Shown here one piece after another: positions 352 to 3,356 of a stretch of DNA of 31,916 nucleotides (position 1 is its first letter; every line of letters starts with the position of its first letter). The notes beneath the pieces are model-generated. The model saw nothing but the letters and a program-made list of their open reading frames with translations. It had not been told where the DNA came from and searched no databases. The position numbers and the translations under genes were made by a program. This DNA comes from Candidatus Omnitrophota bacterium (GTDB lineage: Bacteria; Omnitrophota; Gorgyraeia; Gygaellales; Profunditerraquicolaceae). The stretch lies in contig JAPLLU010000032.1 of NCBI GenBank assembly GCA_026387385.1, forward strand, positions 1-31,916. The letters run 5' to 3'.

Positions 352-615
352 ATGCATTACGTATATGTTCTCCAAAGTCTAAAAGACGGTGAATTTTATA
401 CAGGTTTTACAAGTAATTTAGAGCGTCGTATAAAAGAACACAACGATAAAAATCAATTCTCGACACAAAATAGGGGGCCGCTTAAGCTGATTTATTATGA
501 AGGATGCTTAGAAAAAGAAGATGCTATAGTCAGAGAAAGATATTTGAAAAGTGGCATGGGTAAGAAATATTTAAGATATAGATTGAAGAATTATTTAGCA
601 TTAAACAGTAAATAA
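352..615 (+). CDS. Small GIY-YIG nuclease-superfamily protein (UPF0213-like)
   Basis: The N-terminus VYVLQSLKDGEFYTGFTSNLERRIKEHN matches the GIY-x10-YIG motif plus the conserved Arg/Glu. At 87 aa it fits the stand-alone GIY-YIG family that is often found next to tRNA genes. Confidence 0.75.
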   Translation: MHYVYVLQSLKDGEFYTGFTSNLERRIKEHNDKNQFSTQNRGPLKLIYYEGCLEKEDAIVRERYLKSGMGKKYLRYRLKNYLALNSK

Positions 616-620
616 ATATT

Positions 621-723
621 CGTCAGCATGGGGGGGGCGTGGCCCGATGCTGACGTGAAGTCTAGAGCATGGTCAGCATCGGGCCGTGGTCCCGATGCTG
701 GCTTAGGGTTTAAAAATAACGCC
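621..723 (+). repeat. Two tandem 50-nt units, each a strong hairpin that copies the 5' end of the downstream tRNA-Pro (CAGCAT-[C/G]-GGGGCGTGG plus its reverse complement)
   Basis: Copies of CAGCAT begin at 624, 674 and 724, a period of exactly 50 nt. Hairpin 1 spans 621-655 (9 bp, one mismatch, then 3 bp). Hairpin 2 spans 674-700 (perfect 10-bp stem, 7-nt loop CCGTGGT). The third copy is the genuine tRNA-Pro 5' end. Confidence 0.8.
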
Positions 724-728
724 AGCAT

Positions 729-803
729 CGGGGCGTGGCTCAGTTTGGCTAGAGCGCTTGGTTTGGGACCAAGAGGTCACAGGTTCAAATCCTGTCGCCC
801 CGA
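729..803 (+). tRNA. tRNA-Pro (anticodon TGG)
   Basis: Cloverleaf: acceptor stem CGGGGCG/CGCCCCG, D arm GCTC-AGTTTGGCTA-GAGC, anticodon arm CTTGG-TTTGGGA-CCAAG with anticodon TGG, variable loop AGGTC, T arm ACAGG-TTCAAAT-CCTGT, discriminator A. CCA is not encoded. Confidence 0.9.
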
Positions 804-878
804 CTTACCCACTATTACTTGTCAGTAAATCGTACTTTGTCATCAGACAAAATACCTAAAGATCATTGAAACTAAACT

Positions 879-955
879 GTCCCTGTAGCTCAGCTGGATA
901 GAGCAACTGCCTTCTAAGCAGTCGGTCGGCTGTTCGAATCAGCCCAGGGACGCCA
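879..955 (+). tRNA. tRNA-Arg (anticodon TCT)
   Basis: Acceptor stem GTCCCTG/CAGGGAC, D arm GCTC-AGCTGGATA-GAGC, anticodon arm ACTGC-CTTCTAA-GCAGT with anticodon TCT, T arm GGCTG-TTCGAAT-CAGCC, discriminator G. CCA is encoded at 953-955. Confidence 0.9.
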
Positions 956-990: not shown

Positions 991-1029
991 AAGGCTATGG
1001 TCGATCATACTGATCATAGCCTTTTTATC
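991..1029 (+). terminator. Rho-independent terminator after the tRNA pair
   Basis: AAGGCTATG ... CATAGCCTT forms a 9-bp stem, with an inner GATCA/TGATC pairing, followed by TTTTAT. Confidence 0.6.
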
Positions 1030-1382: not shown

Positions 1383-1394
1383 TATTTTAAATAA

Positions 1395-1540
1395 AAAGTG
1401 GGGAGGTCGTAAAACGGCCTGAGAGTTCCGTGTGGAACGGATGACCCCAGGAACCTGATCTGGATAATGCCAGCGGAGGGAAAGGAGGTCTGGATGTATG
1501 TAGCCCTTATGCAGTTGGCATAAGGGTTTTTTGTTTTTAA
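1395..1540 (+). ncRNA. TPP (thiamine pyrophosphate) riboswitch with an intrinsic-terminator expression platform
   Basis: Hallmark THI-box strings are present: CTGAGA at 1419-1424 and ACCTGATCTGGATAATGCCAGCG.AGGGAA at 1453-1483, near-identical to the E. coli thiM aptamer core. They are followed by the terminator hairpin GCCCTTATGC-AGTT-GCATAAGGGC plus TTTTTTGTTTTT at 1503-1538. A free strong RBS AAGGAGGAG then precedes the thi4 ATG. Confidence 0.85.
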
Positions 1541-2890: not shown

Positions 2891-3356
2891 GCTTGTTTGT
2901 ACAAAGAGATAAAGTTATTACCTATAGCAACACGCGCAGCCAATTTGGACGAGAGAGCCCTTCAGCGAACAAAATGAGGTGCTTTTTATATGTGGGATAA
3001 AGATTTACGTCATTCAATAGATAGTTCGAAGCTACGAATCTGGCAATTTTAGCCCTTTCCCCGCAATTTCCTTTAACATATAACGGATACAGGTGGTTTT
3101 TAGTTCAAGCTGCTTATTTACTATTTATACTGTAGGGCTTCTTTTTTTATATTGTATGTAAGCCAGTATAGTAAACAACGCATTTTAATTAGTCCATTGA
3201 AAAAACTATATGCTATAATACGAGAAGTTAGTACTGATGATAGGTGAGGCATTATAATTTATATAAAAGAGAGCCTCCAAGGTTAAGATCAATTTTTTAA
3301 TCCGCTATTTAATCAACGCTGTATAAAATTAACTTACACTTCAAATCTGAACAGAT

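Follow-up and report, generated by a model that had tools for sequence, protein, structure and literature searches.

In contig JAPLLU010000032.1 (assembly GCA_026387385.1) of a Candidatus Omnitrophota bacterium, the gene for a small GIY-YIG nuclease is followed by two hairpins and then by the genes for tRNA-Pro (UGG) and tRNA-Arg (UCU). We refer to the whole stretch that was analyzed, 31,916 nucleotides (nt) read on the forward strand, as the window. The hairpins resemble the 5′ end of the tRNA-Pro gene that they precede, and a preliminary description of the window had already pointed them out. Our analysis concerns the nature of this repeat array and of the nuclease gene beside it, which together appear to form a small mobile element (Table 1).

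A motif of the form CAGCAT-CGGG-N-CGTGG occurs at 674–689 and 723–738, and a degenerate copy, in which eight G residues replace CGGGG, lies at 624–642. The third copy consists of the 6-nt leader and nt 1–10 of tRNA-Pro (729–804), and it is therefore the genuine tRNA 5′ end, as the preliminary description had said; that description had placed it at 724 rather than 723 and had counted the copy at 624 as a full match, while its copy at 674 stands. The motif count of four (0.26 expected) was reached by no shuffle. The motif was found nowhere else in the 31.9-kb window, and a search for the unit across the window gave no indication of a repetitive extragenic palindromic (REP)-like element. An exact 50-nt period had also been claimed, and this did not hold: the spacings are 50 and 49 nt, the copies are 79%–94% identical, and the first carries an indel. 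Tandem Repeats Finder, run down to a score of 30, reported no array at the repeat region, since the copies are too short and too diverged.

Each upstream copy is followed by its own reverse complement, again as first noted, with 12 of 13 pairs formed in hairpin 1 (621–633/643–655) and 10 of 10 in hairpin 2 (674–683/691–700, extending to 672–702 with a G-U pair). The fold z-score of the repeat region was −5.1. There is no T-run after the stems, and promoter and terminator scans gave nothing convincing inside the array and no plus-strand terminator at 616–733, which agrees with the earlier statement that this is not a simple terminator. Only tRNA and the thiamine pyrophosphate (TPP) riboswitch passed the Rfam gathering score in the window, and at E ≤ 1 the hairpins returned just sub-threshold matches to generic hairpin (miRNA) families. 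In the predicted minimum-energy fold of 616–804, each miniature copy listed in Table 1 forms its own stem, and the G-run at 632–637, farther upstream, takes the place of the true 5′ end as pairing partner of the 3′ acceptor strand of tRNA-Pro.

The hairpins consist of a right end (tRNA leader plus CGGG), a loop carrying tRNA nt 5–10, and a left end (CCCG plus the complement of the leader). The right arm of each hairpin is also perfectly complementary to the left arm of the stem that follows it, at 641–654/672–685 (14 of 14) and 691–702/721–732 (12 of 12), a point that the preliminary description did not mention. These stems are predicted at −29.4 and −24.0 kcal/mol, compared with −21.6 and −21.2 kcal/mol for the hairpins as drawn, and the first value is that of the predicted fold of miniature copy 1. 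Because the best complementarity runs between hairpins, the natural unit is suggested to be CCCG-X′, a short spacer, and X-CGGG, rather than the hairpin itself. Joints between copies then read right end, GCGTGG, left end, which would account for a perfect-looking hairpin that seems to mimic a tRNA 5′ end.

Table 1. Features of the tRNA-Pro locus in window coordinates; copies and ends refer to the putative element
Feature	Position	Strand	Description
GGDEF gene, 3′ end	up to 346	+	
GIY-YIG nuclease gene	352..615	+	87 aa; UPF0213/YhbQ-like catalytic core only; protein-coding copy of the putative element
Gene-bearing copy	352–637	+	Without recognizable left end
Right end of gene-bearing copy (RE0)	621..637	+	CGTCAGCAT then a run of 8 G; degenerate "leader + CGGGG"; left arm of hairpin 1
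CGTGG	638..642	+	Duplicate of tRNA-Pro nt 6–10; loop of hairpin 1
Miniature copy 1	643..683	+	41 nt: left end CCCGATGCTGACG, 16 nt internal, right end GTCAGCATCGGG; ends 14/14 complementary
CCGTGGT	684..690	+	Diverged duplicate of tRNA-Pro nt 5–10; loop of hairpin 2
Miniature copy 2	691..733	+	43 nt: left end CCCGATGCTGGC, 18 nt internal, right end GCCAGCATCGGGG; ends 12/12 complementary
Copy-to-copy junction			GTCAGCATCGGG-GCGTGG-CCCGATGCTGAC (right end, 6 nt, left end)
tRNA-Pro (UGG)	729..804	+	Intact; ARAGORN; Rfam tRNA 69.9 bits
tRNA-Arg (UCU)	879..955	+	ARAGORN, Rfam
Terminator-like hairpin	991–1023		After tRNA-Arg
TPP riboswitch	1389–1498	+	Followed by thi4

By homology, the 87-residue protein is a member of the GIY-YIG superfamily, in its minimal UPF0213/YhbQ-like branch. 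Pfam GIY-YIG (PF01541) matched residues 1–71 at E = 1.4e-16, the residues invariant in 28 relatives include Y5, Y16, R26, H30, and E62, and the only solved relatives are the UPF0213 structures 1zg2 and 1ywl in the PDB (BH0048 and EF2693). The protein consists of the catalytic domain only, with no NUMOD, zinc finger, helix-turn-helix, or other DNA-binding domain found, and it scored 20.6 bits with the NCBIfam group I intron endonuclease model (cut-off 56). A dN/dS of 0.10 between the window and its closest relative, L002, indicates purifying selection on the protein. GIY-YIG is the sole open reading frame (ORF) of the unit of ~290 bp, which carries no DDE, DEDD, HUH, serine, or tyrosine transposase. 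A phage origin was considered and rejected, as PHROGs gave no match to the protein and 2.9 million viral contigs contained a single distant relative; the family is chromosomal. In a 2006 survey of the superfamily, these proteins were standalone Slx1-like domains with no assigned role (PMC1564403), and GIY-YIG genes are among the transfers inferred from Patescibacteria in a 2025 study (PMC12455944).

Relatives of ~86 residues with 56%–84% identity are numerous. A scan of one genome per species gave 445 relatives, the best 80 of which were used for locus analyses, within a comparison set of about 100 related loci. These 80 come from Omnitrophota, many members of the Candidate Phyla Radiation (CPR)/Patescibacteria, Planctomycetota, Nitrospirota, Thermodesulfobacteriota, bins labeled Bdellovibrionales, Balneolaceae, and others. 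Phyla are mixed in the gene tree outside the clade linked to tRNA-Pro, which suggests that the gene family has spread horizontally.

Most of these genes are bracketed by inverted ends. An exact inverted repeat of at least 10 nt, between the 60 nt before the ATG and the 30 nt on either side of the stop codon, was present in 46 of 67 loci compared with 1 of 335 shuffles, and the repeats span 10–20 nt. The consensus ends of the family are CCCGTTAGAG...CTCTAACGGG. In general form, the left end is CCCG followed by X′ and the right end is X followed by CGGG, where X is GTCAGCAT in the lineage of the window and TCTCTAA in most of the family. Between loci the ends differ in their inner part (AGAGAT, AGAGACA, AGAAAT, ACAAATT), and the two ends of any one copy agree. 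The degenerate right end of the gene-bearing copy in the window, RE0, is homologous to the right-end repeat ...TAACGGGG that is present at the stop codon in most relatives. As the right end lies in differing frames relative to the stop codon, it is a feature at the level of the DNA.

At its outer edge the right end reads (A)ACGGGG, which is also the reading of a leader followed by the first five bases of tRNA-Pro. A tRNA gene lies directly downstream on the same strand in 12 of the 80 loci, and all 12 are tRNA-Pro (UGG, GGG, or CGG), in Omnitrophota, CPR, and other lineages. At these loci, stop codon and tRNA are separated by one to three hairpins of the window type. The leader differs from locus to locus, and wherever a locus is occupied the hairpin arms agree with the leader of its own tRNA. 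At the tRNA loci, the CGGG(G) of the right repeat makes up the first bases of tRNA-Pro, and the local tRNA 5′ end is duplicated on the left. The tRNA of L030 (Jorgensenbacteria), for example, starts with CGGGCTGTAG, and the same 10-mer is found directly to the left of the left end, giving the order CGGGCTGTAG, element (CCCGTTAGAGG..gene..CCTCTAACGGG), CTGTAG. Similarly, CGGGCCTTGG and CGGGCCGTAG border the element in L067, and CGGGGCGTG stands on either side of it in L008. The counterpart of the CGTGG duplicate in the window co-varies with the local tRNA sequence in L030, L067, L008, and L212. In the window itself, the final 5 nt of miniature copy 2 are tRNA-Pro nt 1–5, and the tRNA 5′ leader and first bases come from the right end of the element.

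Short direct repeats also flank the family away from tRNA genes. With the element taken as CCCG...CGGG, 9 of 46 loci had flanking 6-bp repeats that matched at five or more of six positions; 1.5 such loci were expected, and 2000 permutations gave no more than 5. Perfect 6-bp duplications occur in L008, L030, L033, L016, L047, L081, and L218, and one of 7 bp in L020. They include GTTTAC in pilin genes (L033, L016), GTTTGC in the RHSFATH motif of a tyrosine integrase gene (L218), and gene starts (ATGAGT in L047 and L081, ATGAAAT in L020). From these alignments, the flanking duplication appears to be real but not universal.

The copies inside protein-coding genes have features of their own. In Omnitrophota (L044, 2345–3130; L078, 2405–3133; also L016, L033, and L039), the element directly follows the prepilin G|FT site and lies in frame within genes for type IV pilins or GspG pseudopilins, and one ORF reads leader-GFT, PLEI, GIY-YIG domain, RFLSLT-GFT, LIELM, T2SSG domain. 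The left end encodes a pilin-like T-P-L-E, and the right end (S-L-T-G) together with the duplicated GTTTAC rebuilds a second G|FT site before the mature pilin. In tyrosine integrase genes (L218, 1150–1620, and the same on 17 contigs; also L015, L068, and L070), the element lies in the conserved RHSFATHLL / LLGH..TT.IYTHV region. The insertion with the perfect GTTTGC duplication splits the gene, and the C-terminal piece with the catalytic tyrosine stays an open frame.

Presence and absence were compared at one orthologous site. The gene order rph, rdgB, X, tRNA-Pro, tRNA-Arg is conserved in Omnitrophota, and X was found in four states. In L208, X is empty, with a promoter (TTGACT-17-TAAAAT) and a plain leader without a hairpin. 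X is a full gene plus a miniature copy in L001, a decayed gene remnant plus a miniature copy in L209–211, and a solo miniature copy in L212–214. The longest exact upstream complement of the leader and tRNA 5′ end was 11–17 nt in 13 of 16 occupied loci (12 nt in the window) and 5 nt in the empty L208. Invasion followed by decay and loss would be expected to give this series of states.

The solo copies also record what happened to the target. In L212–214 a displaced fragment, CGGGGCGTG, has been left behind, and the working tRNA starts with CGGGGCATGG. The 3′ half of the tRNA matches the donor type in L212 and is of the resident type in L214, where A7 consequently stands as a mismatch opposite C66. 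From this chimeric tRNA it follows that at least tRNA nt 1–7 arrived with the element and that the ends of the exchanged tract differ between loci. A search for an empty site by way of the downstream thi4 gene found none; Thi4 orthologs at 90%–95% identity were not beside tRNA-Pro.

Copies without a gene, of 20–160 nt, are common near family members, and some related 5-kb loci contain 4–11 ends. They occur in tandem (L008) or alone (L166, L212). In L008, the second unit, which separates the full copy from the tRNA, has both ends, the 5′ untranslated region, and the initial 26 nt and final ~30 nt of the ORF, and by alignment is an internal deletion derivative. L002, which has 84% protein identity to the window and the same GGDEF neighbor, carries both units of the window in an array of at least six that runs off its contig. 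In L166, the homolog of the first unit of the window stands as a single unit before an identical tRNA-Pro, with a displaced GGGCGTGG and a different leader to its left. The pattern used to search metagenomes matched any hairpin with these 10-nt arms, and ~118 of the 120 stretches it returned look like chance; L166 and L159 were informative. In L159 (2290–2570), a miniature copy with ends of the window type is fused to a decayed tRNA-Pro (GGG), 160 nt upstream of an intact tRNA-Pro (GGG).

We consider it probable, with good though not complete confidence, that positions 352–733 are a head-to-tail array of one full and two gene-less copies (41 and 43 nt) of a small GIY-YIG mobile element at the 5′ end of tRNA-Pro. 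The ends, the duplication, the tRNA-Pro specificity, the deleted copies, and the presence or absence at one orthologous site each emerge from comparison among loci, and on this basis the mobility and structure of the element appear well supported. The preliminary description had listed scars of integration at the tRNA among its options. Element ends and a duplicated target are indeed present, but the repeats would be complete miniature copies of the GIY-YIG element and not scars of a large one. The suggested connection with the adjacent GIY-YIG protein was borne out in substance, as the repeats appear tied to this protein family across phyla.

On insertion, the terminal CGGG(G) of the element would replace the first bases of tRNA-Pro, and nt 5–10 (GCGTGG) would come to lie on both sides, such that the target site and the tRNA 5′ end are rebuilt. 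Re-insertion, or unequal exchange between the short direct repeats, could then add further copies, which internal deletion would shorten. The GIY-YIG protein presumably makes the breaks that move the element, either as staggered cuts ~6 bp apart with transposition-like insertion, through gene conversion of the homing type between alleles of tRNA-Pro, or through a combination of the two. The gene may be transcribed with the tRNA precursor, from which RNase P would release the tRNA. Clean 6-bp duplications at unrelated sites, together with the conversion signature, suggest that there are two modes of spread: copying between cognate tRNA-Pro alleles and occasional insertion at new sites.

Several observations weigh against this interpretation. 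The flanking duplication is absent or imperfect in most loci without a tRNA, and in some lineages the flanking hexamers are inverted. The variable tract ends at the orthologous site look like the signature of gene conversion (homing), which they fit better than the sharp end of a transposon. The genes linked to tRNA-Pro form one clade with phylum-coherent subclades, and therefore much of the tRNA association could reflect vertical descent from few insertions. The link between the nuclease and movement is one of association. The window and L002 have no visible left end upstream of the ATG, since the GGDEF gene ends at 346 and abuts the GIY-YIG gene, and the gene-bearing copy of the window may thus be immobile. 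A candidate left end at 330–346, similar to 703–719, was rejected, as this stretch is the end of the GGDEF coding sequence. Finally, between the window and L002, the terminal ~85 nt of the ORF and hairpin 1 are far better preserved than synonymous sites in the remainder of the ORF (25/28 and 61/67, compared with 36/60). Window positions 536–683 and L002 positions 1292–1438 are about 91%–95% identical, while dS elsewhere in the gene is 0.93, near saturation. This region could be a cis-acting right-end region or a recent conversion tract.

That conserved region would also suit a role at the RNA level, in which the hairpins are processing or stability signals, or a switch that hides the tRNA-Pro leader and 5′ acceptor strand and so controls tRNA-Pro maturation or expression of the upstream gene. 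Pairing of the last left end with the leader and tRNA nt 1–4 is complete (12 of 12), the predicted minimum-energy fold sequesters the true 5′ end and places the 3′ acceptor strand on the upstream G-run, and in L001 and L212 the element lies between promoter and tRNA. However, such complementarity is automatic if the element ends are inverted. The empty site of L208, with its normal promoter and leader, indicates that tRNA-Pro can do without a hairpin, and relatives have anywhere from 0 to at least 6 copies. The gene is bounded by the same ends within protein-coding genes, in the absence of any tRNA, and no Rfam family matched. We therefore regard an RNA-level role as unlikely. The same empty site leaves two options of the preliminary description, RNase P/E decoys and regulatory tRNA mimics, unneeded and without comparative support.

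A slightly poorer prospect is that the repeats are core sites of a host tyrosine (Xer-like) recombinase encoded elsewhere, as in integrative mobile elements exploiting Xer recombination (IMEX) or the pdif modules of Acinetobacter, with the GIY-YIG gene as a passenger cassette. The geometry of the junctions fits such a core site, which has two inverted arms of ~11 bp around a central region of 6–8 bp: arms of ~10–13 bp surround a spacer of 6–7 nt, the spacer is identical on the two sides of the element, and in pilin genes the targets are similar to the right-end/spacer/left-end junction on either side. Yet no linked recombinase gene was found, and in 46 of 67 loci the arms accompany this one small gene, in many phyla that differ in their Xer proteins and dif sites. 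The inner arm is also free to vary as long as both ends match, unlike an arm bound by a protein, and perfect duplications occur at targets that do not resemble the arms (ATGAAAT, ATGAGT, CACAGTTTGCCACA).

Ordinary terminators or REP-like palindromes that resemble tRNA by accident are very unlikely. The G+C-rich stems just after the stop codon would be in keeping with them, as would the recurrence of family-type palindromes in some related loci, but the stems lack a T-run, the sole real terminator-like site is the one after tRNA-Arg, the remaining 31 kb of the window do not contain the motif, and in each occupied locus the arms correspond to the leader of the local tRNA. An assembly artefact or chance similarity can practically be set aside: the contig belongs to a metagenome-assembled genome and that of L002 ends inside its own array, but the same architecture recurs in independent NCBI, JGI, ENA, and Logan assemblies from several phyla, the motif count is never reached by shuffles, and relatives have the repeats in differing copy number (L002, L166, L025, L061), contrary to the artefact that the preliminary description had allowed for.

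The putative element shares traits with several known systems. Free-standing GIY-YIG homing genes such as the seg genes of phage T4 also place a nuclease gene between genes beside tRNA genes, and the SegB gene sits in the tRNA gene cluster of T4 (PMC2330249). As with homing genes, one site can be empty, full, decayed, or without the gene, and the adjacent target is co-converted, as in the L214 chimera. Unlike them, the protein is a catalytic core of ~86 residues without a DNA-binding domain for a long asymmetric target, and the element has inverted ends, 6-bp flanking duplications at some loci, gene-less miniatures both alone and in tandem, and a chromosomal family. Terminal inverted repeats, a short target duplication at some loci, and internally deleted non-autonomous copies recall insertion sequences and miniature transposable elements with inverted repeats (MITEs), and the right end abuts the left end across a few flanking bases as in tandem dimers or circle junctions of insertion sequences. 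In contrast to insertion sequences, the only protein is a GIY-YIG hydrolase, the inner ends vary freely, and insertion regenerates the end of the target gene.

REP elements and REPINs with their REP-associated tyrosine transposases (RAYTs) likewise combine a single small nuclease-type gene with inverted, palindrome-forming repeats and gene-less doublets nearby. RAYTs, however, are HUH Y1 tyrosine transposases related to IS200/IS605, whereas here Pfam finds only GIY-YIG and the repeats carry target-derived tRNA bases. REP systems have tens to hundreds of dispersed extragenic copies per genome; the 31.9-kb window contains no further copy, and the 4–11 ends mentioned above lie within single 5-kb loci of some relatives. 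Integrative elements that target tRNA genes through a tyrosine integrase and attachment (att) sites similarly duplicate a tRNA end, leave the gene intact, and form tandem copies with att-like junctions, but they use the 3′ rather than the 5′ end, while the unit here is 40–300 bp without an integrase and the duplication is 6–10 nt. The element mixes traits of homing genes, insertion sequences or MITEs, and tRNA-targeting elements, but it lacks the DNA-binding domain, the known transposase, and the integrase that respectively define them.

There is a substantial chance that this nuclease-borne mobile element is of a new class. More specifically, and more tentatively, we propose an undescribed class of prokaryotic mobile element, at somewhat under even chances, whose sole protein is a GIY-YIG nuclease of ~86 residues, with inverted ends of 10–17 bp and a 6-bp duplication. 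It would sit just upstream of a host processing site, with the host product still matured (the RNase P site of tRNA-Pro, as in the window, or the G|FT site at which prepilin peptidase acts on type IV pilin or GspG in Omnitrophota). No published description of such an element was found in the full-text literature searched, in which coverage of subscription journals is thin, so an earlier description is possible.

Other features were seen around these tRNA genes. L004 (2859–3249) contains a second, different GIY-YIG gene (2919–3160), with the intact tRNA-Pro on one side and, on the other, a truncated tRNA-Pro 5′ half that agrees exactly with the real tRNA over its first 29 nt; a single tRNA-Pro locus thus houses two GIY-YIG genes that are unrelated to each other. 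In L001 (3395–3566) and L209 (2280–2457), a 28-nt duplicate of the tRNA-Pro 3′ end lies ~150 nt downstream and encloses a short G-rich segment, which looks like a separate small insertion at the 3′ end. The anticodon loop of tRNA-Arg (UCU) is interrupted by roughly 300 nt in L212 (about 2409–2690) and likewise in L213, and this tRNA was missed by ARAGORN; the insertion in L212, of ~310 nt, matched no Rfam family at gathering score, group I introns included. In the window, the terminator-like hairpin after tRNA-Arg likely marks the end of the transcription unit. A conserved non-coding element of ~220 nt (1130–1345) lies between tRNA-Arg and the TPP riboswitch, with the blocks AATAGGCCAA..CCTCTCTTATATAATG..CTATATAATGAAAA and ACCTCTCTAATTTT..ACAGAGAGTGTTTTTATGGTGAG, and recurs in another gene context on another Omnitrophota contig (L203, 4390–4640).

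Standalone UPF0213/YhbQ-like GIY-YIG proteins are among the commonest unexplained small bacterial nucleases. From this evidence, a large branch of them, numbering at least 445 loci across species-representative genomes, seems to be encoded by a tiny mobile element whose ends are defined. If so, one more nuclease family would join the short list of enzymes that move prokaryotic DNA, and an explanation would be at hand for many of the small palindromes, and of the assembly breaks, in the genomes of Omnitrophota and CPR. Hairpin arrays of this kind beside tRNA-Pro should not be annotated as regulatory RNAs or terminators. The element would also be a rare case of targeting of the 5′ end of a tRNA gene with regeneration of the gene, and its junction of right end, 6 nt, and left end would provide a short, defined DNA substrate for these minimal nucleases.

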